A DNA stretch of 64,000 nucleotides from the NCBI GenBank assembly GCA_965207705.1, contig OZ242292.1, forward strand, positions 1,033,309 through 1,097,308, in the 5' to 3' direction. This document shows positions 966 through 54,149 of the stretch, one piece after another. The notes under the pieces were generated by a model. That model saw only the letters and a list, made by a program, of their open reading frames with translations. It did not search any database and was not told the DNA's origin. Made by a program: the position numbers and the translations under genes. Numbering within the stretch: position 1 is the first letter of the stretch; every line of letters starts with the position of its first letter. The DNA is from Gammaproteobacteria bacterium (GTDB lineage: Bacteria > Pseudomonadota > Gammaproteobacteria > CBDBNL01 > JAAOII01).

Positions 966-1934
966 TTATTTAACTTCTCGTCTCCCGTTTGGATATACCC
1001 ACTCCTTCCTGCCATCTGAATGTTCGGTTACCTTAGTTCCATCTGGGTATATAGCTTCTTTTCTCCCATCCGGATAGATCTTTCCTTTATAATTAGTGCC
1101 ATCTGGTAATATACCTTCTATCCTGCCATCTGGATATTCGGTTATCTTGTTTCCATCTGGGAGCTCAGTTACCTTAATTCCATTTAGAAATATGGTCTCC
1201 TTTCTTCCGCCTGGAAATACGGACTCCTTTTTTCCGTCTGGATATTCAGTTATCTTGCCTCCTTCTGGAAATATAGCCACTGTTTTACCATTTAGGTAGG
1301 TTATTAATTTATTGCCATCTGGATATTCGATCATCTTGCTCCCTCCTGGAAATATAGACACTTTCCTGCCGTCTGGGTAGGTGGTGGACCTTCCTACACC
1401 TGGAAGTATATGCACTTTCCTGCCGTCTGGGTAGGTGGTTAGCTCACCCACCTCTGAGGATATAAACTCTTTCTTGCCATTCGGAAAGGTTGTTAGCTTA
1501 CTCCCGTCTGAGGATATAGACTCTTTCCTGCCATTCGGAAAGGTTGTCAGTCTACCCCCATCTGGAGATGTAGTCTCCTTTTTTCCGTCTCGATATATAA
1601 TTACCGTTTTCCCATCTGGGAATATGGTATGTTCCCTGCCATCTGGGTAGGTGGTTTGTGTTTGCCCATCTGGGAATATGGTATGTTCCTTACCATCTGG
1701 GTAGGTGGTTTGCGTTTGCCCATCTGGGAATATGATCTGTTTCTTGCCGTCTGAGTAGGTAGTTAGCTTTCCTCTATCAGGGTCTTTTGCTTCATCACTC
1801 TCGTAAGTGAACACGGGTATAGGTTCTCTTGGTGTAGTATCTACCCTGTCATACCCGTTTGTAGGGAAAGTTCTGCAAGCGCTAATAAAACTCCCTATTA
1901 AAATGCCCACCAAAATTTTTATTATGATCTTCAT
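966..1934 (-). CDS. Octapeptide-repeat (x[YF]PDG[KR]xx) lipoprotein
   Basis: ORF 966..1958. The likely start is the internal ATG at 1934 (MKIIIKILVGILIGSFISAC, lipobox ISAC). About 30 consecutive 8-residue units such as TTYPDGKEHTIFPDGQTQ follow. The plus-strand ORFs 1096..1299 and 1435..1650 are antisense shadows of this repeat. Confidence 0.65.
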   Translation of the reverse strand: MKIIIKILVGILIGSFISACRTFPTNGYDRVDTTPREPIPVFTYESDEAKDPDRGKLTTYSDGKKQIIFPDGQTQTTYPDGKEHTIFPDGQTQTTYPDGREHTIFPDGKTVIIYRDGKKETTSPDGGRLTTFPNGRKESISSDGSKLTTFPNGKKEFISSEVGELTTYPDGRKVHILPGVGRSTTYPDGRKVSIFPGGSKMIEYPDGNKLITYLNGKTVAIFPEGGKITEYPDGKKESVFPGGRKETIFLNGIKVTELPDGNKITEYPDGRIEGILPDGTNYKGKIYPDGRKEAIYPDGTKVTEHSDGRKEWVYPNGRREVK

Positions 1935-2024
1935 ATAAATATCTCTGTATTCAATCAATTTAGAATTTCTATTATTATAGCATAAGAGTAAGTTGCCTCC
2001 CTTATTCTCGTTGGGGTTCTGGTT

Positions 2025-3406: not shown

Positions 3407-5974
3407 TTATGGACGCTGGGCGGCTAAGCCACCGGGAGTGCAGGTGAGCGCGGGGTATTCGGAAGCAGTACCAAAGTCCCAAGCACGGGTCATGCCATCA
3501 GGACACGTTTCTGTTGTCCAATCTGCATAAATCATATCAGGCACAGCATTTGTTGAGTTCTGCAAGCCCTCGGTGCTTCTGCTTGCTTCTGGGTATAAAT
3601 CATTACTTCCTATTGTTTTTGTTACGCCGCTGGTCTCGTTATTCCAATAGGAGTTGGTGATGTTGGCTACCAGGTTTTTGGTGGTGGCTACCCCAAAGCC
3701 AACCAGACCACCATTATTCGGAGAACCACTAATAGACATGCTTGTAGCATAAGACGAGGTGATGGTACTCCCACGCCCATCACCAACCAGACCTCCAACA
3801 ATATCGTTTTTATTCTCGACACTCCCTATTGACGCATAAGACGAGGTAATCTCGCTCCCCGGCCCATTACCAACTAGACCTCCAACCGTCCCAAACCCTT
3901 TAACAATCCCGCCTGACGCATAAGACGAGGTAATCTCGCTCCCCGGCCCATTACCAACTAGACCTCCGACTGTAGTGCCCCCAATGACTCCTCCTACTGA
4001 CACATAAGACGAGAGGATGGTGGCATCCATCCCTCTACCAATCAAACCGCCGATACTTGAACCACTAGATTCAACCATAATCGTCCCCTCCGCGGAGCTA
4101 TTTATAATGCTCGCTCCATTGGCATGACCAGCCAACAGCCCTACATTTCTATTATTAGTGCCAGTAATGCTGGCAGAACGGATATGAACATTGCGCAACT
4201 GCACCCCCTCAGCAATCGCCCCAAACAGACCGACCGCATTTGCATAATCACCAGTAGGATTTGTTATAGTAAGATTGCTAATTACATAACCATTGCCGTT
4301 AAAAGTGCTACTGAAGAATACGGTTGTAGAAGTGCAAATACTAGAACTAACGGTGGAGCATCTGCCAATTGGCTGCCAGTTATCGCCATTATAGCCAGCA
4401 AGGGAGATGTTAGCGACAAGCTCATAGCCGCTGCATACTGTGATATCCTCGCCAGCCATGGTGCCATTGCCGCAGCCCTCGTCATTGCCAGCAGCGTCCG
4501 CAGTTGCTTTGAAGGATGTGCCTTGAAGGTTATGGCGGGTTTGGTTAAGCTCGTCCGCAGTGGTAATTTCTATTAATCCATCGCCGTCTTCATCCACATC
4601 CAGGAAATTAACTAAACCGTCTCCATCTAAATCAGGTCCAATAGCTACGGTAACGGTTTGTGGTATAGTTGCTTTGCCAGCATCGGTGCCGTTTAATGTC
4701 AAACTAACAATAAAATTATAGTATCCTTCCACATCTAGTCCATCTATGAATTCCTGCACCTCAATGCCACGGATTGTTTTGGCTGGGTCTATTATGGGGG
4801 GCAAGTCCACCAAAGAATCAGAACCTCTTTGGTAGCCTATGCTAATGCTCCCTATGTGCTCACCAGGATTAGTCCATATAAGAAGGGCACTCCTGTCGCC
4901 AGGTATCGCCCGTAACCCTATCACTGAAACAGCAGCGGTCGCGGTGATAAAAGGCGCAACACCTTCCCTGCCTGCATAGATGCCACCTAAGGTTAAACTA
5001 ACAGTGAAGGTATAGGATTGTCCGTTGGTTAATCCAGGTATAGTTTCTTCCACTCTAATATTAGGGTTTAGTTTAGCGCCGCTTGTTATACGAGTATTTT
5101 CTTCTTCATTAGTAATAGGATCTAAATAGCTTATGTCAATTGCTATTATATTATTTCCCACAGCGGGATTCATCCAGCTAAGCGTTATGCTTTCATGACC
5201 AAGAACCGCTTCTAATCCTATTACTGGGAATACGTTAGGAGTTGCCGTGGCAGTTGACGCAACAGGGTTTTCCCTGCCAGTATCAGTGCCGTTTAATGTC
5301 AAACTAACAGTGAAGGTATAGGATTGTCCGTTGGTTAATCCAGGTATAACTTGTTCCACGTTATTGCCATTGGTTAGTTGAGAGCTGCTTGTTATAGGAA
5401 AATTTCTCGTTACACCAGCAACAGTATCTGGGTAGCTTATGTCAATCCTTGCTATTTGCGCGGCAGGATTAGTCCAGCTAAGAGTCACATTGCCAGCGCC
5501 TGCAACTACAGCTAATCCTTCTACTGCAAAGATGTTAGGAGTTGCGGTGATAGATTGTACCGCGCCTTCCCTGCCAGCATCTGTGCCATTTAATGCCAAA
5601 GTAACATTGAAGGTATAAGATTGTCCGTTGGTTAATCCTGTTATGACTTGCTGGACGTTAGTTCTGCTGGTGTTTAGTTGAATGTCGTTTGTTATTACGA
5701 TTGGAGGTCTTGGGTTGGCAGAATTAGGTATTGGATTACTAGAATTGGTGATTCCGTAGTTTATGCTAATGTTTGCTATTGACGCGGCAGGATTATTCCA
5801 GCTAAGAGTTACATTGCCAGCGCCGGGGGCTGCTTGTAAATTCATTACTGTGAATTTGATGGGGGGAGTGGGAGGCACAGTAACTGAGACGCCATTGTTG
5901 ACGCCGCCTCCTTCACAAGCAGCGAGGAAAACTGTAAACGTAGTCATTATAAGAATCGTGTTAATATGTTTCAT
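3407..5974 (-). CDS. Large surface lipoprotein with repeated Fn3-like ~90-aa modules, then a Gly-rich C-terminal region of GGLVG-type (GLUG-like) repeats
   Basis: ORF 3407..6004. The likely start is the internal ATG (MKHINTILIMTTFTVFLAAC, lipobox LAAC). It has four to five degenerate modules (NVTLSWxNPAA...GLTNGQSYTFTVSLTLNGTDxGRE) and about seven C-terminal units (VGGLVGNGPGSEITSSYAS). Confidence 0.7.
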   Translation of the reverse strand: MKHINTILIMTTFTVFLAACEGGGVNNGVSVTVPPTPPIKFTVMNLQAAPGAGNVTLSWNNPAASIANISINYGITNSSNPIPNSANPRPPIVITNDIQLNTSRTNVQQVITGLTNGQSYTFNVTLALNGTDAGREGAVQSITATPNIFAVEGLAVVAGAGNVTLSWTNPAAQIARIDISYPDTVAGVTRNFPITSSSQLTNGNNVEQVIPGLTNGQSYTFTVSLTLNGTDTGRENPVASTATATPNVFPVIGLEAVLGHESITLSWMNPAVGNNIIAIDISYLDPITNEEENTRITSGAKLNPNIRVEETIPGLTNGQSYTFTVSLTLGGIYAGREGVAPFITATAAVSVIGLRAIPGDRSALLIWTNPGEHIGSISIGYQRGSDSLVDLPPIIDPAKTIRGIEVQEFIDGLDVEGYYNFIVSLTLNGTDAGKATIPQTVTVAIGPDLDGDGLVNFLDVDEDGDGLIEITTADELNQTRHNLQGTSFKATADAAGNDEGCGNGTMAGEDITVCSGYELVANISLAGYNGDNWQPIGRCSTVSSSICTSTTVFFSSTFNGNGYVISNLTITNPTGDYANAVGLFGAIAEGVQLRNVHIRSASITGTNNRNVGLLAGHANGASIINSSAEGTIMVESSGSSIGGLIGRGMDATILSSYVSVGGVIGGTTVGGLVGNGPGSEITSSYASGGIVKGFGTVGGLVGNGPGSEITSSYASIGSVENKNDIVGGLVGDGRGSTITSSYATSMSISGSPNNGGLVGFGVATTKNLVANITNSYWNNETSGVTKTIGSNDLYPEASRSTEGLQNSTNAVPDMIYADWTTETCPDGMTRAWDFGTASEYPALTCTPGGLAAQRP

Positions 5975-6101
5975 TACTTTGGTTGTTAATGTAAATACTG
6001 TCATAATTAATATCCTTTTGGTTTAAGTTCAATAGATATAATATTATATAACATAATTCAAGCAAATAATTATTAATAATAAACTGGTTTATAATTTCAT
6101 T

Positions 6102-25555: not shown

Positions 25556-26176
25556 TTAATTATTGCATTTGCTCCGTTTTGCTTTCTTTTTCCGATCAGA
25601 TTCGACTTGTTTCATCGCTTGCGCAGGATCATGTGGGCGTGAACCACTCGGCGGCTCTCTACTATATTTTTCATAATATGCTTGGAACACAAAATATGGA
25701 TATACATAATCCTTTACATAATCATATAAATTATCTGCATCAATATCAGTATGAAATGCCAAGCAGCACCAGCATATACCATTAAGTTTATTTAAATGCA
25801 CATCTCGCAACTCTTTACCTAATCTTTTTCTTGTCTTTTCAATCCTTCCTGATTTTTCGAAAACCATAGGGAAGCCCCATTGATCGCGGGCATCTTCATT
25901 ATTGCCAAGACGTATCTTAATTTTATATCCGGGTGGTTTATCGTCAACTAAATGCCTTAATTTGTTAGCATCTTCTCCTGGTTTTAATGGCCCAATACGC
26001 CATGGGCTTTTTGTACTTTCTCTAAAATACTTAACACGAAAATATAAATTCCCTTGTATAGTTTCATGTTTTGGATCGTATTCTAAATCAGGGAAAAATT
26101 TTTTTATCCGTTCGAAATGTTCTTTTGAATAAGCTATGCATAATCCTTTATTCAAATGGGCCGCTCTTAAATTCAA
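25556..26176 (-). CDS. Uncharacterised 206-aa protein, third gene of the patatin-nucleotidyltransferase operon
   Basis: ORF separated from the nucleotidyltransferase gene by only 12 nt. Cys/His cluster (GICWCCLAFH), basic C-terminal tail (KKKAKRSKCNN). AT-rich. No recognisable family. Confidence 0.5.
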   Translation of the reverse strand: MNLRAAHLNKGLCIAYSKEHFERIKKFFPDLEYDPKHETIQGNLYFRVKYFRESTKSPWRIGPLKPGEDANKLRHLVDDKPPGYKIKIRLGNNEDARDQWGFPMVFEKSGRIEKTRKRLGKELRDVHLNKLNGICWCCLAFHTDIDADNLYDYVKDYVYPYFVFQAYYEKYSREPPSGSRPHDPAQAMKQVESDRKKKAKRSKCNN

Positions 26177-26188
26177 AAGCTAGTTCTG

Positions 26189-27211
26189 TTATAAAGATAG
26201 CGCATAGGGCTTGACTGCATCAACAATTGGAATTGAGGCGGTTGCTGCTGGCGTTATTTTGCCTCCTGAATTATTATTAGAGGTGTCTCCATTTAATTTT
26301 CCGAACTTATCGCCGAAAATCTTTCTCCATTCTTTTACACATTCATCATGGTTCTCTGCTTTATAAGCATCATTAATGAAATTATTATAGTCATTAAATA
26401 TTTTTCTGAATTTAGAATAGCCGTCTTGATTCCATCTGTCTGCAAAATTTTCACTCTCAAGTATTGGATTTTGAATTCTGGGAAGAGCTTCATTCTGCTG
26501 TAAGTAATCGTTTATTCTATTGACAAGAGTTTTTAAGCAGGTAGGGAGATTAGCAAAATCCGCATCATCATACTCATCATCATCTTGCACCTGCGCCCCT
26601 ATGAGTGTAGTTAATATTATTGATTTAATATCAAATTTTTTACTATGGTCTCTAGAATACTTTAATAATCTTGTGACTTTACGAATAAGGTTCCCTCCAA
26701 TTTTTTTATTTTTTTCTACCAACCATTTTTTATAGCCATCGCCATCAGTTAGCTCATAGCATTTATCATTTGAATTACAAATATAATATAAATAATCATT
26801 CTCCCCATTAGCAACTCTTATACAAGGAACCAGATCGAGATGAAAATCTCCCGCATAATCTAGTGTGACGCATCTATTATTCTTTTCGACTATATCCTTA
26901 TAGTTTGCATCTGCACGAAATACTTCATATATATCATTCACATAATCTACAAATGTATTTGCATCAAACTCATCACCCTTTATCATTATTAATACATCAG
27001 CGTCAAATCCAGTATCAGCGTCAACTGGTTTAATTATAGTTTTTAATGCATAGGATCCTTGAGTTTCAAAAGTTCTATAGGGTACGTATTTATCTTTCAA
27101 ATAACTAGTGATGATATCAATTTTTGATTCCAATAGCGCTACGCGTGATTTATTGAGATTGACTTCGTCTTTAAGAAAGTCATCAAAATAACCTATAATT
27201 TCGTTAATCAT
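26189..27211 (-). CDS. Pol-beta-fold nucleotidyltransferase with cGAS/DncV-like (CD-NTase/SMODS-type) active-site pattern
   Basis: 340 aa. GS (res 52-53), then 10 residues, then D-A-D (KPVDADTGFDADV), and a downstream hDh strand (FHLDLVP), i.e. GS-x(n)-[DE]h[DE]...h[DE]h. Helical C-terminal half. Directly downstream (65 nt) of a patatin phospholipase gene. Confidence 0.55.
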   Translation of the reverse strand: MINEIIGYFDDFLKDEVNLNKSRVALLESKIDIITSYLKDKYVPYRTFETQGSYALKTIIKPVDADTGFDADVLIMIKGDEFDANTFVDYVNDIYEVFRADANYKDIVEKNNRCVTLDYAGDFHLDLVPCIRVANGENDYLYYICNSNDKCYELTDGDGYKKWLVEKNKKIGGNLIRKVTRLLKYSRDHSKKFDIKSIILTTLIGAQVQDDDEYDDADFANLPTCLKTLVNRINDYLQQNEALPRIQNPILESENFADRWNQDGYSKFRKIFNDYNNFINDAYKAENHDECVKEWRKIFGDKFGKLNGDTSNNNSGGKITPAATASIPIVDAVKPYALSL

Positions 27212-27276
27212 GGCTAGTTAATAGGGCTAGTATCTTAAATTTCAAGTACTATTATTCGTTTTAATTGAGAATCTAA

Positions 27277-28251
27277 TTATTTTGAGAAAAATTTCTTAAA
27301 ATCTTCTTTTTTACCCTTAAATTTTTCTTCCGCCCTTCTCTTAAGGGCGGGGATTACCTTAATGTCATCAAGAGATATTTTTTCAACAGTATAATCGACT
27401 CTCATATATCTATCTTTAAGCATCAATTCCAGTGAATTATGAGGGAAGTCTTTTTGGATATGCATAACAAAATCAATGAGTTTTTTATTCTTCCATCCCG
27501 TTAAAAAACCCCATTTCTTTGAAAAATCTTTCTGCTTATAACCTTCTCTCGACTTGCCTGTACCTAATGAAAGTAATTTTATATCAGCGTGCTGAGATTC
27601 AAAGTTACTTAATGCTTCGATATAGCCCACCAAAGCAGGATTATTAGCCCACAGCCCTCCATCACATAACAAGGCACCCTTAACCATGGTGGGGTCAAAG
27701 TAAGTTGGCGCACAACAAGAAGCTAAAACTGCCTGCCATAGAGGGATGCATCCATCGCGTGCATACCCTTTTTTTCCTCTTATTTTTTCCTGATAATTAG
27801 ATTTAAATACCTGAACCCCCCAATTAGAAATATTTACAGCATTTATAATCAAGGGTTTATCTATATCTTTTAATAATGTGCCTCCCATCTCCTTCTCTAA
27901 AAATTTTCTAAGAGAACTAGTTTTATATATAGAGGCACATAGCCCCTCCCCCAAAAGTTGTTCTAAAAATCTACAAAGTATATTATGGTTAGTTTTTTTA
28001 AAAATACCAGGGGAACTATTTTCAAATTGATCTATTAATCTATCTAAGGGGTATCCTATCGCAACAGCCGCTGCTACAATAGCTCCCGTGCTTGTTCCAA
28101 CAATTAAATCAAAATATTCCCTAATATCAATGCTCAGTTCCTTCTCTATTTTGTGAAGAATCATAGCCGGGTATATTCCACGAACCCCGCCGCCATCAAT
28201 TGTTAGAATTTTAATTTCACCCCTATAGCCCTTTAGTTTTTCCTTCATCAT
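27277..28251 (-). CDS. Patatin-like phospholipase (CapV-like effector)
   Basis: 324 aa. Oxyanion-hole motif DGGGVRG (res 19-25), GxSxG nucleophile motif GTSTG, catalytic-dyad Asp in LLCDGGLWANNP. Confidence 0.85.
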   Translation of the reverse strand: MMKEKLKGYRGEIKILTIDGGGVRGIYPAMILHKIEKELSIDIREYFDLIVGTSTGAIVAAAVAIGYPLDRLIDQFENSSPGIFKKTNHNILCRFLEQLLGEGLCASIYKTSSLRKFLEKEMGGTLLKDIDKPLIINAVNISNWGVQVFKSNYQEKIRGKKGYARDGCIPLWQAVLASCCAPTYFDPTMVKGALLCDGGLWANNPALVGYIEALSNFESQHADIKLLSLGTGKSREGYKQKDFSKKWGFLTGWKNKKLIDFVMHIQKDFPHNSLELMLKDRYMRVDYTVEKISLDDIKVIPALKRRAEEKFKGKKEDFKKFFSK

Positions 28252-28354
28252 TCAGATTAAGGTTATTTGTAGCAGCTCAATCTTTAAGCCCCATCTCCAT
28301 AAAATTCTTGAGTCATAGCGGCTAATCTCAACTTTCATTTTCTGTGCTGCGTAA

Positions 28355-29056
28355 TTACAGTTGTTCTGAATATAGCTTACTTATACTCGCTTTATCAAAT
28401 ATTCCTGGCAAAAATACTATAAAGCCATTATCAAGACGTTTTAGTTTGCCTTTCCATTCTTCTTGCCAACGGGCAAATGGTACCGATGGTTGTTTTTTTA
28501 TAAGTGTAAAAGGATCACCTTTAGGAATGTCATAAGTTATATTAATAATAATTTTCTTTCTCTTGGTAATCGGGCGAGGTACTCGCTCTTCGCGACTTAA
28601 AGTTTCTTTCTTTATTTGAATAGGTATTATCTGCTTCCCGTTACTTACTTGCATGTCGATGCCTTGCCAATCGAGTTCTGCATTCATTTCTACTGTATCA
28701 AATATTTCTTCGGCAATGTAACCAGCATGAATTTGGGTAAGCAAGCTTGCCCAAGTACGATATATTCTGGCAGGAAGTCCTCTATGAAAAGTTTCATAGC
28801 TAAATTGAGATTTCCTTCTAAATTCTTCCAGTTCTGGCTTCAAATCTTTAGAATACTTTGCATAAAACTTCTCATAATTAAGATAGTTAGAATAATTATC
28901 CCAGTATGTTTGATAAATATGCTTAAGGGCTTGTATATTGCGAGGTAAATCAAGTTCTACTATTTTAATTCGGGAGTATTTCTCTCTATAAGCTGAGGTG
29001 TCTATTCCGGAGAGGAATTTCTCAAATTTCTCTACTGATCGCATTGTTGCAACCAA
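28355..29056 (-). CDS. Hypothetical 233-aa protein, candidate type II restriction endonuclease partner of the upstream methyltransferase
   Basis: Start overlaps the methyltransferase stop by 25 nt (translational coupling). AT-rich. Possible degenerate PD-(D/E)xK-like segment (QGIDMQVSNGKQIIPIQIKKE). No family recognisable by eye. Confidence 0.4.
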   Translation of the reverse strand: MVATMRSVEKFEKFLSGIDTSAYREKYSRIKIVELDLPRNIQALKHIYQTYWDNYSNYLNYEKFYAKYSKDLKPELEEFRRKSQFSYETFHRGLPARIYRTWASLLTQIHAGYIAEEIFDTVEMNAELDWQGIDMQVSNGKQIIPIQIKKETLSREERVPRPITKRKKIIINITYDIPKGDPFTLIKKQPSVPFARWQEEWKGKLKRLDNGFIVFLPGIFDKASISKLYSEQL

Positions 29057-30075
29057 CCATTTGCAAGGTTTATATAATCTTTATTTAGTTCTATCCCCAA
29101 ATAATTTACTCCCAATTGCTTTGCCGCCACACATTCAGAACCAGAACCAGCAAACGGCACTAATGCCGTCCCAACCTCTTCGCCTGCCACAGCAGATCTG
29201 ATGAGTTGCTGGGTTAAATATAATGGTTTTTGTGTGGGGTGTTTAATAACAGAATGCTCGCGATGATGTTTTAGCTCGGAAGGAGGGAATATCTGATTAT
29301 CGCAGGTTTGACATAGAAACCATCTCTCGCTCGCACCAGCGCCGCCTGCTAAAGCCGGATAATGCAATACGTCACGCGGCAAGGCGCCGCGTGGATGCAC
29401 ATTGTAAACTGTATCTTTGTTTTGATTGTTATAACGGCAGGGCACGCTCAAACGCTTCTTGCCGCCAAGTTTTTTATAACTCTCGGTATAAGGAATACGG
29501 ATCTCATCAATGTTGATAATTGGGCGTTTGCCTTTCCAAAAACAAATTATGGTTTCATGGCTTCTCTGCCAAAACTTGGATGAAGGAACTGCCTTGTTCG
29601 TGTAGTGCCAAGCCAGCCACCTTTGTTTATCCAAGGGAAAGCGCACTGCCAAGTGCGCAATTATTTCGCTCAAGCCATATACATAAACGGGCTTGCCCTG
29701 CTTAACTAAGCGTAAGCATTCGTGCAACCATTGCTCACACCACGAGATATATTCATCGATATGAAGATTGTCGTCATCAATTTTGTTGCCAAAATCCTTG
29801 CCAATGTTGTAGGGCGGATCTGCAATGATAACGTCAAATAAATCATTTTGTTTTATATTTTGCAATACCTTGAGTGCATCTCCACAGATTATGGAGTTTA
29901 ATGGAGGTAATTCAGGCGATTGGTTATCTTTTGGTTTAATTGGATTTAAAAATATTTCTTTTTGTTGCAGAGGATTATAATCCTTGGCGGTAACTCCCTC
30001 CCGCGCAGTCTCCCGTGCAGTATCCGAGCGGAGATTATTCTGTTGGAGTTTCAATGTTCGCGTTGCGTTTGCCAA
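29032..30075 (-). CDS. DNA methyltransferase, beta-class amino-methyltransferase (motif IV DPPY before motif I FAGSG); N6-adenine or N4-cytosine specific
   Basis: 347 aa. IIADPPYNIG (motif IV, res ~85) precedes the C-terminal AdoMet-binding VPFAGSGSECVAAKQLGVNYLGIELN (motif I). This is the circular permutation typical of beta-group N6A/N4C MTases. Confidence 0.85.
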   Translation of the reverse strand: MANATRTLKLQQNNLRSDTARETAREGVTAKDYNPLQQKEIFLNPIKPKDNQSPELPPLNSIICGDALKVLQNIKQNDLFDVIIADPPYNIGKDFGNKIDDDNLHIDEYISWCEQWLHECLRLVKQGKPVYVYGLSEIIAHLAVRFPLDKQRWLAWHYTNKAVPSSKFWQRSHETIICFWKGKRPIINIDEIRIPYTESYKKLGGKKRLSVPCRYNNQNKDTVYNVHPRGALPRDVLHYPALAGGAGASERWFLCQTCDNQIFPPSELKHHREHSVIKHPTQKPLYLTQQLIRSAVAGEEVGTALVPFAGSGSECVAAKQLGVNYLGIELNKDYINLANGWLQQCDQ

Positions 30076-45610: not shown

Positions 45611-47116
45611 ATGCTTTTTCAAGTTGCCCTAGCTGGTAGAACTAATGTCGGGAAATCTTCTCTATTCAATCGTCTATGTAAAAGTGCTCCTCCCCGCAGG
45701 GGTAAGCACACGGAGGAAGATGCAGCAAACCCTGCTGCTCCTGCGCGCACGCAACCATACTCAAGCCGCTCACAACGCAAGGCGATAGTTGCAAACTCTG
45801 ATGGAGTAACCCGTGACTTGCTGTGCGGAGTTGTCCCAAGCGCCCATGGCGACTTTATCCTAATTGACAGTCCTGGACAGATGATGGACAACGAAGCATT
45901 GCATAAGTTAATGGAAGAACAAGCGCGCAAGGCATATACAATGGCGGACTTATTATTATTTGTCTGTGATGGGAAAGAAGGGCTGACTGCCGCAGATGAA
46001 AGAATTGCCACAGAAATTCATGCCAGTAATAAAAACTGCATTTTATTGGTGAATAAAATGGACCATAATGCGGATGAAGGGGCGATAGCGGACTTCTATC
46101 GTTTTGGTTTCCCCGTTATCGGAGTATCGGCAAAGAGCAGTTTAGGTATAAAAGATTTACGCAACGAGATAGAACGGCAAATTGCTAAAAAAGAAGCAGC
46201 AAACGAAGTGGATGATAATTTACCACCGTCAACCGGTGGTACTGATGCTGATGATACGGCAACTCCAACGCCAAAAGCGCATATTCCCGCCATCGCTCTG
46301 CTCGGCTGCCCTAATGTTGGCAAGTCAACTCTTGCCAATCTGCTACTAAAAGAAGAGCGGCAACTGGTGCATGACAAACCTGGCTCTACTCGCGACAGCG
46401 TTCTCTTGCCTTTCACTATGGATAAATCTACCAAAGAGGGAACCAGCAAAGAGGATTGGATGTTAATTGATACTGCAGGCATAAGACGCAAGAGTAGAGT
46501 CAATGAAAGCTTAGAGCAGCTCATGGTAACCTCAGCAATTCATGCTATATATGACAGCGATGTTGTTATTTATATAGTTGATGCCACTGAAGGACTGAGG
46601 CATCAGGATAGCGCCTTATTGCATTTAGCGGAAAGAGCCGGCAAGGGTCTGGTTATAGCTGTGAATAAAGCTGACCTGCTTGACGAACAACAAAGGAAGG
46701 ACTTAAAGGGGCTATTGGAATGGGACTTGGCTTTTATTGATTACGCTCCTTGTCATTTTATTTCTGCCGCCAAGAATAAAGGTATAAAGGAATTACTAAA
46801 GTCGGTGCAGTTGGCGCGCCGTTCTGCAGAAACTAGCTGGGACACCACCGCCTTGAATCGTGTTTTACAAGCATTACTTAATAATCATCCTCCTCCTTTG
46901 AGGCAAGGAATGCGCAGCAACCTGCGCTACGCAAATCAAATTCACGATAAGCCCCCTCATCTTGTGATTCACGGCAAGCGGCTACAGCAATTACCTAACG
47001 GATATAAGAAGTATTTACAAAAAAGCTTTTCACGGGAAATGAAGTTACAGGGCGCTCCCCTTAAAATTTCCTACAAAACTGACGATAATCCTTATGGTGG
47101 CTCACGCCAGCGTTAG
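45611..47116 (+). CDS. der: Ribosome-biogenesis GTPase Der (EngA), two tandem GTPase domains plus KH-like C-domain
   Basis: 501 aa. G1 motifs GRTNVGKSS and GCPNVGKST, DTAG motifs, NKxD motifs (NKMD, NKAD). A ~28-aa basic/Pro-rich insert lies between the P-loop and switch I of domain 1. Confidence 0.9.
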   Translation: MLFQVALAGRTNVGKSSLFNRLCKSAPPRRGKHTEEDAANPAAPARTQPYSSRSQRKAIVANSDGVTRDLLCGVVPSAHGDFILIDSPGQMMDNEALHKLMEEQARKAYTMADLLLFVCDGKEGLTAADERIATEIHASNKNCILLVNKMDHNADEGAIADFYRFGFPVIGVSAKSSLGIKDLRNEIERQIAKKEAANEVDDNLPPSTGGTDADDTATPTPKAHIPAIALLGCPNVGKSTLANLLLKEERQLVHDKPGSTRDSVLLPFTMDKSTKEGTSKEDWMLIDTAGIRRKSRVNESLEQLMVTSAIHAIYDSDVVIYIVDATEGLRHQDSALLHLAERAGKGLVIAVNKADLLDEQQRKDLKGLLEWDLAFIDYAPCHFISAAKNKGIKELLKSVQLARRSAETSWDTTALNRVLQALLNNHPPPLRQGMRSNLRYANQIHDKPPHLVIHGKRLQQLPNGYKKYLQKSFSREMKLQGAPLKISYKTDDNPYGGSRQR

Positions 47117-47191: not shown

Positions 47192-48886
47192 TTATCTCTC
47201 AATAATATAGATATTATCCTGCTCTGTTGTCTGCAGATATTTAGGGTAGTGGGTTATTTTTTGCATTTGTTCTCCATACTTCTCATACAACCTCCCCCAT
47301 TCATCATCAGGGATGCCTGAACGATGAAATATCACTATATCATAATCACTCAAGATAAATTCATCAACTAGTAAACAACGAAAGTGCTTAGGGATGTAGT
47401 TTTGGTGAGCTAAATTGCAACTATCAATAAAATAAAGATTAAAAGGAGTTTCTTCAGTAGCTATTTTATGCGTAAGGGCAAAGGGTAGCACAGCACTTAT
47501 GCTGTCTCTTAGCTCATAGACAAATATATTCGTAACTTGATTTTCCTTTAGTTTGATATTAGTTTTATGGGCGTAGAATTGATATTCACGAGTTTTATAC
47601 TCCTGGAAATCGGATATGGTGGTCGGAATGCTAAAGAATAAATAAAATAATATGAACACGGGAACAAATAATCTTAATGCCGTTGTTGAGCTTTTACCCT
47701 TCAGATAAAAACATGCCGCGAGTATAAGGGCAAACTCAGGAATGCAATAATAATATCGTTGCGTAAACTTAAAAAATAATATCGCCATTATGTAAAGAAT
47801 CCCTCCAGCAAAAAGCATAATGGAAAACCTATGTCGTTGCAGCTTATTAATATCTTTGATATAACAAGCCACCATGATTAAAATAAGGGGAAAGAGCGGG
47901 TATGTGATAAATAACCCATATATAAAAGATAAATACTTGAAGTTATAACTTACTCCATAAACATATTTGCTTACAATTATAAAAAAGTGGAATGTCGCAT
48001 ACATCACTACAAAAAATAATGGCGCCAGTAGGATTCCTATTTCCAAAGGATTATTCTTAACAAAGGTAAGTGGTTTACGCAGGGCATTAACAATTGTAGT
48101 ATTGCTGTCAATCATGCGGAAAATTAACGCAGTGAGAGCAAATCCGCCAAAAAACACAAACATCGGCTCTTTAAAGTAAATCGCCGTATGCGCCAACGTC
48201 AAAGCAAAAATAAGATATCGGGTTTTATTGGTCTTATAAAATTGAATAACCGTATAAAGAAAAAGAACTGTGAGGAATATGGTGTTTCTTTCAGGAATTA
48301 CTAGAGTTGAAACAGGGATTAAGAAAGAGGCGTTTAATCCTATGAATAAAATTACTAATACTCGTTGCCATAACCGCACAAACGGAATAATTTTATTTAA
48401 GAAATATGCTGTGGCTAAAAACTCTATGAAAGTAACCGCATAAAGAAAATAATAAGAACAGTTTAGCCAATGGAATGGCAATGCCAGAAAACTTAAATCT
48501 TGATGCATAAAAGGGCCGAACCTATATCCCCAAGTAATCAATGGAGCCAAAAGATGCTTATTACATAGATATACATCTATATATAAAGGTTCTTCTCCAC
48601 GTTTAGGGCTGGCAAGATAAAAGTTATTCCAAAATAGAAAAATAGCATAAAGCCCCAGCAAGAACAAGGCAAGATAATCAGCTGGCGAACGCCCTTTCCA
48701 TGCCTGGTTGCTGTTAGGATGATTTACAAATAAAGCCTTTTCTTTTTCATAAGACCATTGCTGACTATAGCGTGTCACCCACAAACAATAAATGGTAAGT
48801 AAAGTGAAAGCAAGCACTAAAGCAATCGCTAAAATTAAGAACTCGGGATGTTGAGGCAATTTAGCAAAATTATCATAAAGAGACAT
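47192..48886 (-). CDS. Polytopic membrane protein, paralogue A of a three-member family (~12 TM plus ~150-aa C-terminal soluble domain); possibly a GT-C-like glycosyltransferase
   Basis: 564 aa. About 70% identical by eye to 50683..52383 and 52383..54089. Shared blocks: MSLYDNFAKL, HPNSNQAWKGR, NNFYLA, FYKTNKTRYL, EFILSDYD, YGEQMQKIT, NIYIIE. Confidence 0.7.
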   Translation of the reverse strand: MSLYDNFAKLPQHPEFLILAIALVLAFTLLTIYCLWVTRYSQQWSYEKEKALFVNHPNSNQAWKGRSPADYLALFLLGLYAIFLFWNNFYLASPKRGEEPLYIDVYLCNKHLLAPLITWGYRFGPFMHQDLSFLALPFHWLNCSYYFLYAVTFIEFLATAYFLNKIIPFVRLWQRVLVILFIGLNASFLIPVSTLVIPERNTIFLTVLFLYTVIQFYKTNKTRYLIFALTLAHTAIYFKEPMFVFFGGFALTALIFRMIDSNTTIVNALRKPLTFVKNNPLEIGILLAPLFFVVMYATFHFFIIVSKYVYGVSYNFKYLSFIYGLFITYPLFPLILIMVACYIKDINKLQRHRFSIMLFAGGILYIMAILFFKFTQRYYYCIPEFALILAACFYLKGKSSTTALRLFVPVFILFYLFFSIPTTISDFQEYKTREYQFYAHKTNIKLKENQVTNIFVYELRDSISAVLPFALTHKIATEETPFNLYFIDSCNLAHQNYIPKHFRCLLVDEFILSDYDIVIFHRSGIPDDEWGRLYEKYGEQMQKITHYPKYLQTTEQDNIYIIER

Positions 48887-49054
48887 TACCTCATCCTCTC
48901 AGTTGGATTCATGATTCTGCTAAGTATCATCATTCTCAACAGCGGGTTTTTACATCAAAACCATATATTCTGGTTCTATATTTTTGTGGCATAAATAACA
49001 TATTGAATATTATAATGTTATTATGAATAGAAAGAAACACAAACGTAACATCTA

Positions 49055-50596
49055 ATGGATCAATCAGGAATAGACCCTTCTTTACAAGGCGCGCAAGGAA
49101 GCATACTTTGGTATGACATAGAGACATACGGCAGCAACCCTGCTTCATCACCGCTAGTTCAATTTGGCGCAGTGCGCACTGATACCCAACTAAACGTCCT
49201 TGATGAGATAAACTTGTTATGTAAACCGCCGGCGGATATGTTAATTGACCCAGAAACTGTAACCATCCATAATATAAGCCCACTTACCGCGCAAAATGAG
49301 GGACTGCCCGAAGCGGAGTTCGCGCGCCGTATATACTCTGAAATTAACCAGCCGAATACCTGTAGTGTCGGCTATAACTCTGTTTCCTTTGATAATGAGT
49401 TTATACGCTTTCTTTTTTTCCGTAATCTATTGCCAGCTTATTGGCACGAATATAAGGATGGGTGCAGCAAATGGGATTTGTTAGATGTAGTGCGGCTTAT
49501 CTCGGTAATAGAACCTGCAGCAATAAAAGCGCCCATCATTGATGATAAAGCATCTTATAAATTAGCAAATATTGCCAAAGAAAATGATATTGCTGAGCAT
49601 CAACCACACGATGCCTTTGGCGATGTAGAAATATTACTCACTTTGGCGCAACAGATTAAACAAGCAGCGCCACAACTCTATAATTTTTGCTTTAACTCTC
49701 GCGGCAAGAACATCGCCCAAGATCTTATGCGTAAAGGAGAGGTTTTGCTAAATTTTTCTTCCAGGTTTTCTGGCGCTTATCACGGCGGTGGTATTATATG
49801 TCCTATTGCGCCCCATCCGACACAAAAAAACTCTTATATATGTTTTGATATTCGCTATTCTCCACAGGATTTATTGCAACTTTCAGCTGACGAGATGCGC
49901 TCTCGTCATTTTCAGTCCAAAAACCCGGCAACTCCTGATCCCGCTGCGGCTCCAGCTACATCTCCTGCAGCGACGAATCATCCTCCTACAGGGATCAAGG
50001 TCATAAGATTAAATCACTGTCCAGCGTTAATGCCATGGGACAGCAATTGGGACGAGAGCAAAACTAATGAGATTTTCTCTATGCTACAACTTGATAGAGG
50101 CATAGCTCGTTCACACCTAAAACAACTCAAAGAAAATCGCGCCGCAATTGTCAATAAAATAGCTGCAATATATGATGAAGAATTTGATAATAGTCATAAC
50201 AATAATGAACTTAACGGGGATAAGGAGATTAGCGCCGAACAATCGCTTTATGGCGGTGGATTCATCAGCGATAAAGATTTACAAGTGGGGCAACAGGTTC
50301 ATCAGATGAATGCTGACGAGCTAAAAAATCTACATGCCACAGACGCTCCTTTTATGGATAAACGGCTTAATGAGATTTTAGTAAGATTTAAAGGACGTAA
50401 TTTATCTGATTCTCTGTCCCCTAATGAAATGACGATATGGCAAGAACATTGCGCCAAAATCCATGATGAAGGCCTGCCGCCTCTCATCGCCACAACCCAG
50501 CAACTAATTGCAGCCCATAAAGACAACCCGCAACTGGCTCAGTCCTTAGCAGAAACTCTTAGCTATTTAGAGAATCTGCGACAGATAAAACAGTAA
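49055..50596 (+). CDS. sbcB: Exodeoxyribonuclease I
   Basis: 513 aa. DnaQ-like exonuclease motifs (ILWYDIETYGSNP, YNSVSFDNEF, HDAFGDV) plus SH3-like and helical C-domains. Has a Pro/Ala-rich insert (NPATPDPAAAPATSPAATNHPPTG). Confidence 0.9.
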   Translation: MDQSGIDPSLQGAQGSILWYDIETYGSNPASSPLVQFGAVRTDTQLNVLDEINLLCKPPADMLIDPETVTIHNISPLTAQNEGLPEAEFARRIYSEINQPNTCSVGYNSVSFDNEFIRFLFFRNLLPAYWHEYKDGCSKWDLLDVVRLISVIEPAAIKAPIIDDKASYKLANIAKENDIAEHQPHDAFGDVEILLTLAQQIKQAAPQLYNFCFNSRGKNIAQDLMRKGEVLLNFSSRFSGAYHGGGIICPIAPHPTQKNSYICFDIRYSPQDLLQLSADEMRSRHFQSKNPATPDPAAAPATSPAATNHPPTGIKVIRLNHCPALMPWDSNWDESKTNEIFSMLQLDRGIARSHLKQLKENRAAIVNKIAAIYDEEFDNSHNNNELNGDKEISAEQSLYGGGFISDKDLQVGQQVHQMNADELKNLHATDAPFMDKRLNEILVRFKGRNLSDSLSPNEMTIWQEHCAKIHDEGLPPLIATTQQLIAAHKDNPQLAQSLAETLSYLENLRQIKQ

Positions 50597-50682
50597 TTAT
50601 TATTGCTAATTATCTTTTTCAATAATCAGGGATAGCAAAGAATTCAACAAGGGCGGAACTTGACTATACACTAACGAGAATA

Positions 50683-52383
50683 TTATTTCTCAATAATATA
50701 GATGTTATCCCGCTCTGATGTCTGTAGATATTTAGGGAAGTGAGTTATTTTTTGCATTTGCGCTCCGTATTGTTCATACAAATTTACCCATTCCTCCTCA
50801 GAGATGCCTGGGCGCCAAAAAATCACTATATCATAATCACTCAAGATAAATTCATCGGCAGGAAGGCAACGAAATTGCTTAGATGCTTCCCCTCGCTGCT
50901 CTAAATCACAACCATCAAAAAGATGAAGATCAAAAGGCGTTTCTTTAGTAGCGATTCTTTGCAGCAGAACAAAAGGGAATGGAATGCTGTTAAGGCTAAG
51001 CCCTGAATCGTAAGCAAATACTTTAGTAATCTGATTTTCTTTGAGTTTGATGTTTGTTTTATAAGCGTAGGATTGATATTCACGGATTTTATGTAGCTGG
51101 AAATCTAATATGGTCGCCGGAATGCTAAAGAATAAATAAAATAATATGAACACAGGAACAAATATCCTTAATGCTGCCGTCGAACTTTTATCCTTCAGAT
51201 AAAAACATACCGCCAGTATAAGGGCAAACTCAGGAATGCAATAATAATATCTTTGTCCAAACCCAAAAAACAATAACACCATTATGTAGAGAACCCCTCC
51301 AGAAAAAAGCATAATAGAAAAGCAATGTCGTTGCAGCTTATTAATATCTTTGACATAACAAGCCGCCATTATTAAAATAAGCGAAAAGAGTGGATATGTG
51401 ATAAAGAGTTTATATAAAATAAATAGAACATTTTCCCTACGAACCGGAGCAACATAAATATACGTACTTTCAACTACAAAAAGCTGAAATGTCGTATACA
51501 TAACCACAAAAAATAATGGCGCCAGTAGGATTCCTATTTCTAAAGGATTATTCTTAGCAAAGTTAAATGGTTTGCGCAGGGCATCAACAATTGAGGTGTT
51601 GCTATCAACCATACGGAAAATTAACGCGGTGAGAGCAAATCCGCCAAAAAATAAAAACATAGGCTCTTTAAAGTAAATCGCCGTATGCGCCAACGTCAAA
51701 GCAAAAACAAGATATCGGGTTTTATTGGTCTTATAAAATTGAATAACCGCATAAAGAAAAAGAACAGTGAAGAATATGGCATTTCTTTCAGCAATAACTA
51801 AAGTTGAAACAGGAATTAAGAAAGAAGCATTTAATGCTATGAATAAAATTACTAGCACTCGTTGCCATAACCGCGCTAACGGAATGATTTTATTTAGGAA
51901 ATATACTGTAGCTAAAAACTCTAAGAAAGTAACCGCATAAAGCAAATAATGAGAACAATTTAGCCAATAAAATGGCAAAGCTAGGAGGTTTAAATCTTGA
52001 TGGCCAAAAACCAAAAATCTATGCCCCCAAGTAATCAGTGGAGCCAAAAGATGCATATTACATACATATACATCTATATATAAAATTTCATCATATCTTT
52101 TAAGTTCAGCAAGATAAAAATTATTCCAAAATAGGAAAATAACATAAAGACCCAACAATAACAAGGCAAGGTAATCGGCGGACGAGCGCCCTTTCCATGC
52201 CTGGTTGCTATTAGGATGCTTTACAAATAAAGCGTTTTCTTTTTCATAAGACCATTGATTACTATAGCGCGTCACCCACAAACAATAAATGGCAAGTAAA
52301 GTGAAAGCAAGCGCTAAAGATAAAGCTAAAATTAAGAACTCAGGATTCTGAGATACTTTAGCAAAATTATCATAAATAGACAT
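50683..52383 (-). CDS. Polytopic membrane protein, paralogue B
   Basis: 566 aa. Same conserved blocks as 47192..48886. Its start overlaps the stop of paralogue C at 52383. Confidence 0.7.
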   Translation of the reverse strand: MSIYDNFAKVSQNPEFLILALSLALAFTLLAIYCLWVTRYSNQWSYEKENALFVKHPNSNQAWKGRSSADYLALLLLGLYVIFLFWNNFYLAELKRYDEILYIDVYVCNMHLLAPLITWGHRFLVFGHQDLNLLALPFYWLNCSHYLLYAVTFLEFLATVYFLNKIIPLARLWQRVLVILFIALNASFLIPVSTLVIAERNAIFFTVLFLYAVIQFYKTNKTRYLVFALTLAHTAIYFKEPMFLFFGGFALTALIFRMVDSNTSIVDALRKPFNFAKNNPLEIGILLAPLFFVVMYTTFQLFVVESTYIYVAPVRRENVLFILYKLFITYPLFSLILIMAACYVKDINKLQRHCFSIMLFSGGVLYIMVLLFFGFGQRYYYCIPEFALILAVCFYLKDKSSTAALRIFVPVFILFYLFFSIPATILDFQLHKIREYQSYAYKTNIKLKENQITKVFAYDSGLSLNSIPFPFVLLQRIATKETPFDLHLFDGCDLEQRGEASKQFRCLPADEFILSDYDIVIFWRPGISEEEWVNLYEQYGAQMQKITHFPKYLQTSERDNIYIIEK

Positions 52384-54089
52384 TATCTTGTTCTCTCAAT
52401 AATATAGATATTGTCCTGCTCTGATGCCTGCAGATATTTGGGAAAATCAGTTATTTTTTGCATTTGTTCTCCATATTGTTCATATAATTTTTTCCATTCA
52501 TCATCAGGGATGGCTGAGCGCCAAAAAATTACTAGGTCGTAATCACTTAAGATAAATTCATCCACCTGCAGACAACGGAACTGCTCCGGCACTCTTCCCG
52601 CTGACTTTAAAGCACAATCAGCAAAAAGATGAAGAACAAAAGGCGTTTCTTTTGTAGCTATTCTTTGAAGAAGGACGAATTGCATTGGCAGGGGACCAAG
52701 TTCACCTCCTTGCCCATAAGAGAATACCTTATTAACCTGATTTTCTTTTAGCTTTATGTTTGTTTTATGACTGTAGAATTTATATTCATTAATTTTATAC
52801 CGCTGAAAATCGGATATGGTTGTTGGGATACTAAAGAACAAATAAAATAATATGAACGCAGGAACAAATATTCTTAATGCCGTTGTTGAGCTTTTACCCT
52901 TCAGATAAAAACATGCCGCCAATATAAGGACAAGCTCAGGAAGACAATAATAATATCTGCTGCCAAACCTAAAATATATTAGCGCCATTATGTAGAGAAC
53001 GCCTCCGGCAAAAAGCATAATGGAAAATCTATGCCGCTGCAGCTTATTAATATCTTTAACATAACAAGCCACCATGATTAAAATAAGCGGAAAGAGCGGG
53101 TATGTGATAAATAATCCATATACAACAGATATACGGCTTGCTTCACTGAATATTAGACCATAAACCCAACTGCTTTCAACTATAAAAAGTTGGAATGTTG
53201 CATACATAACCACAAAAAATAATGGCGCCAATAGGACTCCTATCTCCAAAGGATTTTTCTTAACAAAATCAAAGGGTCGGCGCAGGGCATCAACAATTGT
53301 AGTATTGCTGTCAATCATACGGAAAATTAACGCAGTAAGAGCAAATCCGCCAAAAAATAAGAATGTTGGCTCTTTAAAGTAAATAGCTATATGCGCCAAC
53401 GCTAAAGCAAAGATAAGATATTGATTCTTATTGGTTTTATAAAATTCAATAATCGCATAAAGAAAGAGAACCGTGAAGAATGTGGTGTTTCTGTCAGGGA
53501 TAACAAAGTTCGAAAAAGGAATTAAGAACGAAGCATTTAATACTATGAATAAAATCACTAACGCTCGTTGCCATAACCACACCAACGGAATAATTTTATT
53601 CAGAAAATATACCGTGACTAAAAACTCCAAAAAAGTAGCCAAATAATAAAAATAATAGGGGTTTTTTAGCCAATAGGATAGCAAACCTAAGATATTTAAA
53701 TCTTGATGCATAAAAGGCGCAAATCTCCGCCCCCAACTAATCCATGGTGGCACCAAATGTAAGTTGCGCGAATATACATCTATAAATAGAGGATCTTCAT
53801 TTCTTTTGGGTCCCGCTAAATAAAAGTTATTCCAAAACATAAAAATAACATAGAGTCCCAACAATAATAAGGCAAGATAATCAGCTGGGTTACGTCCTTT
53901 CCATGCCTGGTTACTGTTAGGGTGATTTATGAATAAAGCATTTTCTTTTTCATAAGACCATTGCTGACTATAGCGCGTCACCCAAAAACAATAAACGGCA
54001 AATAAAGTGAAAGCAAGAGTTAAAGCAAAAGCTAAAAGTAAGTACTGAGGATGCTCAGACAATTTAGCAAAATTATCATAAAGAGACAT
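52383..54089 (-). CDS. Polytopic membrane protein, paralogue C
   Basis: 568 aa. Same family, tandem with paralogue B. Confidence 0.7.
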   Translation of the reverse strand: MSLYDNFAKLSEHPQYLLLAFALTLAFTLFAVYCFWVTRYSQQWSYEKENALFINHPNSNQAWKGRNPADYLALLLLGLYVIFMFWNNFYLAGPKRNEDPLFIDVYSRNLHLVPPWISWGRRFAPFMHQDLNILGLLSYWLKNPYYFYYLATFLEFLVTVYFLNKIIPLVWLWQRALVILFIVLNASFLIPFSNFVIPDRNTTFFTVLFLYAIIEFYKTNKNQYLIFALALAHIAIYFKEPTFLFFGGFALTALIFRMIDSNTTIVDALRRPFDFVKKNPLEIGVLLAPLFFVVMYATFQLFIVESSWVYGLIFSEASRISVVYGLFITYPLFPLILIMVACYVKDINKLQRHRFSIMLFAGGVLYIMALIYFRFGSRYYYCLPELVLILAACFYLKGKSSTTALRIFVPAFILFYLFFSIPTTISDFQRYKINEYKFYSHKTNIKLKENQVNKVFSYGQGGELGPLPMQFVLLQRIATKETPFVLHLFADCALKSAGRVPEQFRCLQVDEFILSDYDLVIFWRSAIPDDEWKKLYEQYGEQMQKITDFPKYLQASEQDNIYIIERTR

Positions 54090-54149
54090 TATCTTGCTCT
54101 CTCAGTTAGGTTCATTACTCCACCAGGCATAATTACTTAAACGGCTAAT

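Follow-up and report, generated by a model that had tools for sequence, protein, structure and literature searches.

Three paralogous membrane proteins between gyrB and der in an uncultured gammaproteobacterial lineage as putative glycosyltransferases of the GT-C fold

The transfer of sugars from lipid-linked donors by glycosyltransferases of the GT-C fold is a well-established kind of system. ArnT (CAZy family GT83; PDB entries 5EZM and 5F15) is the lipid A 4-amino-4-deoxy-L-arabinose transferase; it has an acidic residue soon after the transmembrane (TM) helix preceding its first periplasmic loop, and its donor is an undecaprenyl-phosphate sugar made by a family 2 glycosyltransferase (GT2), ArnC. 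The Gtr-type systems of Shigella and Salmonella, which comprise the GtrA flippase, the polyprenyl-phosphate glucosyltransferase GtrB and a serotype-specific GT-C enzyme (GtrC/Gtr*), are reviewed or extended elsewhere (PMC11127046, PMC8035078), and a polyprenyl-phosphate sugar synthase, a flippase and a GT-C transferase make up the three-component pathway of these systems and their relatives (PMC11127046). Among the mycobacterial Emb and Aft enzymes, several GT-C paralogues with different acceptors use one lipid-linked donor (PMC11127046). Here a 64,000-nt stretch of gammaproteobacterial DNA (contig OZ242292.1, positions 1,033,309 to 1,097,308; hereafter the window) was analysed, the minus strand of which bears three paralogous open reading frames (ORFs), designated copies A, B and C. 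The encoded proteins are probably periplasmic GT-C glycosyltransferases which form the transferase arm of a Gtr/Arn-type pathway, with different acceptors and, it is likely, one shared lipid-linked donor.

The three ORFs were found to be intact at the coordinates given by the first-pass annotation of this DNA (Table 1), and the proteins were 76% (A-B), 73% (A-C) and 72% (B-C) identical, far above chance and close to the approximately 70% judged by eye in that annotation; nucleotide identity was 80-83%. Of five sequence blocks which had been quoted as identical in all copies, HPNSNQAWKGR and EFILSDYD are so, while the other three differ in B (MSIYDNFAKV, YGAQMQKIT) or C (FYKTNKNQYL). The gene order is recF-gyrB-C-B-(sbcB)-A-(der-bamB-yfgM-hisS). 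The assignment of the gene on the opposite strand between A and B as sbcB also held, its 93%-identical orthologue in a related 1.79-Mb genome (L002) carrying the RNase_T, ExoI_SH3 and ExoI_C domains; there was no evidence for a functional link between sbcB and the paralogues.

Word-indexed protein searches with a single sequence or a profile reached only the close lineage and one further protein, P0174. When 1.84 billion representatives were searched exhaustively with a HMMER profile, 202 distant relatives were recovered at E-values up to 1e-3, 11 of which reached 1e-30, and the closest outgroup homologues were 30-40% identical. The deeper alignment that this search provided was needed for structure prediction: a first AlphaFold2 run on 13 near-identical close sequences gave an unusable model (predicted local distance difference test, pLDDT, of 38), whereas an alignment of 61 sequences gave a pLDDT of 90.2 and a predicted template-modelling score (pTM) of 0.92. 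When the model of copy A was compared with the PDB using Foldseek, all matches of probability 1.00 were GT-C glycosyltransferases, namely human ALG9 (E = 3.9e-4), the C-mannosyltransferase DPY19, ArnT (5F15/5EZM), STT3/PglB and Pmt4. The best template-modelling score (TM-score) was that to ArnT (0.45-0.47), and EmbA/B, AftA and PimE were matched at lower probability. This fold comparison had been named beforehand as a test of the GT-C-type architecture suggested in the first-pass annotation, which it upheld. The approximately 12 TM helices and soluble C-terminal domain of ~150 residues described there were likewise recovered, as 12 long helices, in agreement with hydropathy and within the 7-13 TM helices of a GT-C membrane domain, and ~140 residues after the last of them, which extends as a stalk to residue 443.

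Lysine and arginine residues numbered 21 in the odd-numbered loops compared to 7 in the short even-numbered loops, and the positive-inside rule predicts that the short N-terminal tail lies outside, loop 39-67 in the cytoplasm, and loop 90-144 and the C-terminal domain in the periplasm. The proteins are predicted to carry an additional first helix (TM0), and 51 of the 61 relatives showed a two-helix N-terminus whose connecting loop is rich in K/R (mean of 5 K/R in ~30 residues). The layout would run from a periplasmic N-terminal tail through TM0 and a K/R-rich cytoplasmic loop to a GT-C core, with an acidic loop after TM1, and a C-terminal periplasmic domain. Position 98, ~9 residues after helix 68-89, was acidic in 60 of the 61 relatives (D in 59, E in one; E, D and E in A, B and C respectively), R122 was invariant within the motif GRFFPLGHQEFN, and position 130 was E or D in 60/61. 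Further conserved positions were PERN (198-201), Y-x-KEP (237-241, with K239 invariant), Y310 (59/61), Y365 and Y378/Y379, and a cysteine pair in the C-terminal domain (Cys490/Cys504; 55/61) probably forms a disulfide in the periplasm. Copies A, B and C all retain the conserved polar residues and the cysteine pair. All strongly conserved polar positions map to loops or the ends of helices that are predicted to face the periplasm, as an extracytoplasmic GT-C active site would require.

A link between the family and a described sequence family was offered by P0174, which matched the family profile with an E-value of 1.5e-50 (hhalign probability 99.8) and also passed the gathering score of the curated Pfam family PMT_2 (PF13231; 35.6 compared to 26.1 bits). 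The PMT_2-matching region corresponds to approximately residues 135-290 of copy A, in the TM core, and P0174 may therefore be regarded as an indirect bridge to PMT_2 at the sequence level. One of the 61 aligned relatives gave a weak PMT_2 match (E = 4.8e-4). Close relatives were far fewer: a search of 5.8 billion protein clusters returned 10 full-length clusters, all at least 71% identical, whose contigs in ENA/NCBI assemblies range from 65 kb to 2.24 Mb. They are confined to a few uncultured gammaproteobacterial genomes of 1.3-2.2 Mb, always between gyrB and der and in 1 to 4 copies. The single copy of contig OZ242303.1 (L001) lies towards der; of the three in the window, two lie towards gyrB and one towards der; and the four of L002 are split evenly between the sides. 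Orthologues of copy A were found in at least four genomes.

The neighbourhoods of the five closest outgroup homologues (Table 1) were then considered with regard to a sugar donor. A polyprenyl-phosphate GT2 (~314 amino acids) adjoins four of the five, and GtrA is also present in three (L003, L004 and L010); three of these partner GT2s are 55-59% identical to one another. In L003 (7242..12120), the closest outgroup, two family members of 573 and 559 amino acids flank a single GT2, and GtrA comes after them, the 573-residue protein being assigned to the family with an hhalign probability of 100; several family members per donor module thus recur outside the lineage of the window. Other neighbours in L003 scored best as deoxythymidine diphosphate (dTDP)-6-deoxyhexose enzymes (a DesI-like aminotransferase and a dTDP-4-amino-4,6-dideoxyglucose formyltransferase) and as a NeuD-type acetyltransferase, with GT2s also present, which points to a polysaccharide gene cluster.

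A profile of the partner GT2s identified 313-residue orthologues (59-60% identity; P0185 and the P0183 cluster) on contigs of 2,057,196, 1,793,685, 1,863,397, 2,087,519 and 2,243,418 bp, the same chromosomes as bear the paralogues. The lineage GT2 has two C-terminal hydrophobic segments and aligns over its full length to PgfS (1.5e-81) and ArnC (1.9e-48), below both equivalog cutoffs. Its surroundings in OZ242303.1 were read from the cluster member P0305 (L011). At 8140..12278 of L011 (~1.05 Mb in OZ242303.1), the GT2 is divergently paired with a 576-residue PMT_2/ArnT-like GT-C protein, followed by an unannotated 416-residue protein with ~7 hydrophobic segments and a loop of ~100 residues after the first; GT2, GT4 and GT10 genes lie ~7-10 kb upstream. 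The 576-residue neighbour was considered as a distant member of the family and rejected (hhalign probability 0.1). The lineage GT2 might serve this ArnT-like enzyme, the paralogues, or both. The GT2 genes beside the outgroup homologues and in the lineage itself suggest, indirectly, that the paralogues may use a lipid-phosphate-linked sugar.

These comparisons bear on what the acceptor may be. ArnT gave the best TM-scores, the lineage GT2 aligns full-length to ArnC, and the L003 module lies beside a formyltransferase and a DegT aminotransferase, recalling arnA and arnB, so the paralogues could be modifiers of lipid A or core, whose addition of a cationic or amino sugar to the phosphates of lipid A would alter resistance to host antimicrobial peptides, rather than decorators of O-antigen or another polymer. 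We regard this as unlikely: a separate ArnT-like PMT_2 protein, unrelated in sequence to the family, already adjoins the lineage GT2, the L003 aminotransferase and formyltransferase fit dTDP-6-deoxyhexose enzymes typical of O-antigen sugar synthesis, and three or four diverging copies suit many acceptor sites better than two lipid A phosphates.

Somewhat less likely again is a role in protein O-glycosylation, A, B and C being PMT- or PgfM-like enzymes that modify proteins of the periplasm or cell surface and each have a target set of their own. Matches of the fold to Pmt4, DPY19 and STT3/PglB speak for this, as do the PMT_2 match of the bridging relative P0174 and the best NCBIfam match of the lineage GT2, streptococcal PgfS, the donor synthase in a pathway of protein glycosylation; the PgfS match, however, is far below the equivalog cutoff (274 compared to 500 bits), A, B and C have neither a MIR or other PMT-specific domain nor a PMT/PMT_2 match, and the neighbourhoods of relatives are of the polysaccharide type (in L003, GT2s, a NeuD-like acetyltransferase and sugar aminotransferases).

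The divergence of the copies was compared with that of the flanking genes. Paralogue pairs in the window showed a nonsynonymous divergence (dN) of 0.14-0.17 and a synonymous divergence (dS) of 0.43-0.59 (dN/dS, omega, 0.29-0.32), and orthologous A copies of the window and L001 showed a dN of 0.077 (omega 0.27), while flanking genes between the same genomes showed a dS of 0.06-0.26 and a dN of 0.003-0.043 (omega 0.03-0.20); the duplications are therefore older than the split of these genomes. All eight genes examined in three genomes were intact, with no stop codons (omega 0.22-0.38). The copies are thus kept by purifying selection, yet the proteins change faster than their neighbours. A neighbour-joining tree rooted with P0024 and P0025 gave a clade A (win_A, P0001, P0002, L001 and L002_d1), a clade B (win_B, P0008, P0005 and three L002 copies) and a clade C (win_C/P0009), the last confined to the strain group of the window. 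Values of dN were highest in loop 90-144 (0.20-0.33), loop 304-317 (0.61-0.76, with a nucleotide identity of 57-68%) and residues 452-505 (0.33-0.59), compared to only 0.05-0.13 in blocks of the membrane core. These hot spots coincide with predicted periplasmic parts, and it is in their periplasmic parts that GT-C enzymes such as ArnT, PglB and Emb meet their acceptors. Short stretches of 94-98% nucleotide identity, for example A-B codons 211-240, could be small gene-conversion tracts or reflect strong constraint. Given the dS values, the three old clades and the periplasmic concentration of dN, the copies are not near-identical recent duplicates, in keeping with the diverging family envisaged by the first-pass annotation; the substrate diversification that it proposed would be compatible with the data.

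That the proteins are not enzymes at all, but transport proteins, members of a membrane effector or structural family particular to the lineage, or duplicates in decay, would agree with the lack of any database annotation or direct motif match for A, B and C and with their faster evolution than the flanking genes, but is highly improbable, as the transporter, effector and pseudogene readings were rejected on the Foldseek scores (TM-score ~0.1 at low probability for channels and transporters) and on intact genes under constraint, the periplasmic-side polar residues are kept in the 61 distant relatives, GT2/GtrA neighbours recur, and Wzy, WaaL and other non-GT-C folds are missing from the confident Foldseek matches, A, B and C having no Wzy or WaaL match in Pfam either. 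The effector family, which had been raised beforehand, finds no support, given that A, B and C are inner-membrane proteins of 12 TM helices and that 202 distant relatives exist elsewhere.

With the GT-C glycosyltransferase reading, the following pathway of the Gtr/Arn type is proposed. The 313-residue polyprenyl-phosphate GT2, encoded elsewhere on the chromosome, would load a sugar onto undecaprenyl phosphate; the lipid-linked sugar would be flipped to the periplasm; and each paralogue would transfer it to an envelope acceptor, most likely lipopolysaccharide or another surface glycan. The paralogues would probably draw on the same donor and act at different acceptor sites, and the surface glycan would vary between strains with 1, 3 or 4 copies.

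Several observations weigh against this reading. Neither Pfam nor NCBIfam returned a match to A, B or C even at E-values up to 10, the PMT_2 and NCBIfam ArnT thresholds were not reached by any of the three, and a profile search of PDB sequences returned only noise. TM-scores to solved GT-C structures reach only ~0.45, and it is from the predicted topology that the conserved residues would cluster in one pocket. No GT2 or GtrA-family gene was seen in the window; in OZ242303.1 the GT2 lies ~0.8 Mb from the paralogue locus, with no GtrA within 10 kb of it, so that the genes are unlinked in the lineage of the window and linkage is seen only in outgroups. P0026, one of the five closest outgroup homologues, and P0174 have no glycosylation genes beside them. 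The ArnT-like partner could be the sole client of the lineage GT2. Finally, no sizeable region showed a convincing omega above 1, and clear positive selection was not seen in any.

The junction of the tandem copies gave some indication of how the overlap may have arisen. The position shared by the B and C ORFs (52383), pointed out in the first-pass annotation, reflects a 1-nt overlap of the C stop and B start codons in the context aga-TAATG-tct. The 5' leaders of A, B and C are homologous (AACTGAGAG..(A/G)TAATG), and the 3' ends of A and B read ATTGAGA(G/A)ATAATATTCTCG. The 3' end of C (ATTGAGAGA) passes directly into the family 5' leader (ACAAGATAATG), and as a result C has two added residues (Thr-Arg, TR) and the TAATG stop/start overlap. 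As judged from the sequences, this is consistent with the junction having formed at a shared TGAGAGA microhomology. The tandem copies in L002 are separated by 131 nt, and the coupling of B and C is therefore specific to the arrangement in the window. An Rfam search of the window gave no match, a promoter/terminator scan did not differ from shuffled sequences, and neither simple repeats nor GATC sites were found, hence there was no sign of phase variation. Phage genomes searched by tblastn gave no match to the family and the genes are not phage-borne.

Table 1. Positions of the paralogues, their parts and other features of the window, and gene neighbourhoods of outgroup homologues
Feature	Position in window	Strand	Extent or context	Remarks
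Copy A	47192..48886	-	564 aa, ATG start	Clade A; putative GT-C-fold membrane glycosyltransferase, der side of sbcB
Copy B	50683..52383	-	566 aa, ATG start	Clade B; second gene of tandem pair, gyrB side
Copy C	52383..54089	-	568 aa, ATG start	Clade C; first gene after gyrB, most divergent copy
sbcB (exonuclease I)	49055..50596	+	Between A and B	Conserved landmark splitting the paralogue array
C-terminal alpha/beta domain of copy A	47195..47533	-	Residues 452-564 (~113 aa)	Predicted periplasmic; strands and helices in AlphaFold2 model
EL1 of copy A	48455..48619	-	Residues 90-144	First predicted periplasmic loop; E98, R122, D130; candidate catalytic loop
Loop of copy A	47936..47977	-	Residues 304-317	Hypervariable predicted periplasmic loop around conserved Y310
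Hydrophobic helices of copy A (12)			Residues 14-38, 68-89, 145-166, 172-193, 199-219, 222-236, 242-260, 280-303, 318-344, 346-372, 377-395, 402-424	From AlphaFold2 model
C/B junction	52381..52403	-	Leaders of other copies at 54090..54113 and 48887..48910	Sequence comparison of three 5' leaders and 3' ends
CBASS-like pair	26189..27211; 27277..28251	-	SMODS/DncV-like nucleotidyltransferase; patatin phospholipase	With unannotated 206-aa ORF at 25556..26176
Restriction-modification pair	28355..29056; 29032..30075	-	TaqI-like restriction endonuclease; N6/N4 DNA methylase	
P0024 (L003)			Formyltransferase, DegT aminotransferase, 573-aa protein, 313-aa GT2, P0024, GtrA	
P0025 (L004)			GT2, GtrA, P0025	
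P0027 (L009)			314-aa GT2 directly upstream	
P0029 (L010)			GT2, GtrA, P0029	Gene ends adjoin or overlap
P0026 (L005/L006)			No glycosylation neighbours	
P0174 (L007)			No glycosylation neighbours	

Further features of the window were recorded. The Der/EngA GTPase next to copy A (501 amino acids; 45611..47116, plus strand) has an apparent Pro/Ala/Arg-rich insertion of ~35 residues right after its first P-loop (…SAPPRRGKHTEEDAANPAAPARTQPYSSRSQRK…), as seen by eye in the translation. A low-GC island (0.33; 25556..30075, minus strand) holds two defence systems, one of them resembling a cyclic-oligonucleotide-based antiphage signalling system (CBASS; Table 1), with psd-panC-panB on its high-coordinate side. 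A 330-residue protein (966..1958, minus strand) is built of ~6 Tcp10_C repeats (T-complex protein 10 C-terminus; E = 1.2e-61). Outside this case the domain is characteristic of centriole proteins of eukaryotes, and bacteria associated with hosts often encode such eukaryote-like proteins. An 865-residue protein (3407..6004, minus strand) has fibronectin type III and GLUG motifs and is possibly a surface or secreted protein.

The analysis proposes a function for a membrane-protein family left blank by Pfam and NCBIfam. Should acceptor specificity differ between the copies, copy number (1, 3 or 4 among genomes that are nearly identical in other respects) would offer a simple genomic marker for surface-antigen variation in this uncultured lineage. 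The conserved residues are direct targets for mutagenesis. More tentatively, and with less confidence than is placed in the enzymatic assignment, the 202-member superfamily may be an unclassified GT-C family meriting its own CAZy/Pfam entry (motifs D..(GRFFPLGHQEFN)..PERN..YYKEP and an unusual N-out layout with the additional first helix), which became detached from its donor genes and was amplified to 1-4 copies at a housekeeping locus of a small-genome, probably host-associated lineage, as a strain-level generator of surface-glycan diversity. As the GT-C mechanism is already well established, the conceptual gain is modest.

Compared with the known systems, the family shares one member, P0174, with Pfam PMT_2, while A, B and C and 60 of the 61 relatives fall below its threshold. 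It resembles ArnT in combining a multi-helix membrane domain with a C-terminal, predicted periplasmic domain (TM-score 0.45-0.47) and in having an acidic residue close behind the helix that leads into the first predicted periplasmic loop, and differs from it in the low identity (~10%), the absence of a match to the PMT_2 or ArnT models, and the extra N-terminal helix with a predicted N-out, 12-TM layout; the lineage also has an ArnT-like gene of its own. The mycobacterial Emb and Aft enzymes are lower-probability structural matches to the copy A model; they are much larger, carry carbohydrate-binding modules, use a decaprenyl-phosphate arabinose donor and belong to another phylum. The likeness to Gtr systems lies in the polytopic GT-C fold with a candidate extracytoplasmic catalytic loop, in the GT2-GtrA-GT-C modules in which close relatives of A, B and C are found, in the possible sharing of one donor system by several acceptor-specific GT-C proteins (L003 has two), and in a GT-C component which is poorly conserved and often unannotated. 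In contrast to Gtr, A, B and C have no demonstrated sequence similarity to a characterised GtrC, are not carried by phage, lie in a gyrB-sbcB-der housekeeping locus without phase-variation signals and, in the lineage of the window, are unlinked from the GT2, with no GtrA found nearby. Relative to all of these systems, the novelty lies in the sequence family, in the added helix at its N-terminus, in its separation from donor genes and in its variable copy number at a housekeeping locus of an uncultured lineage.

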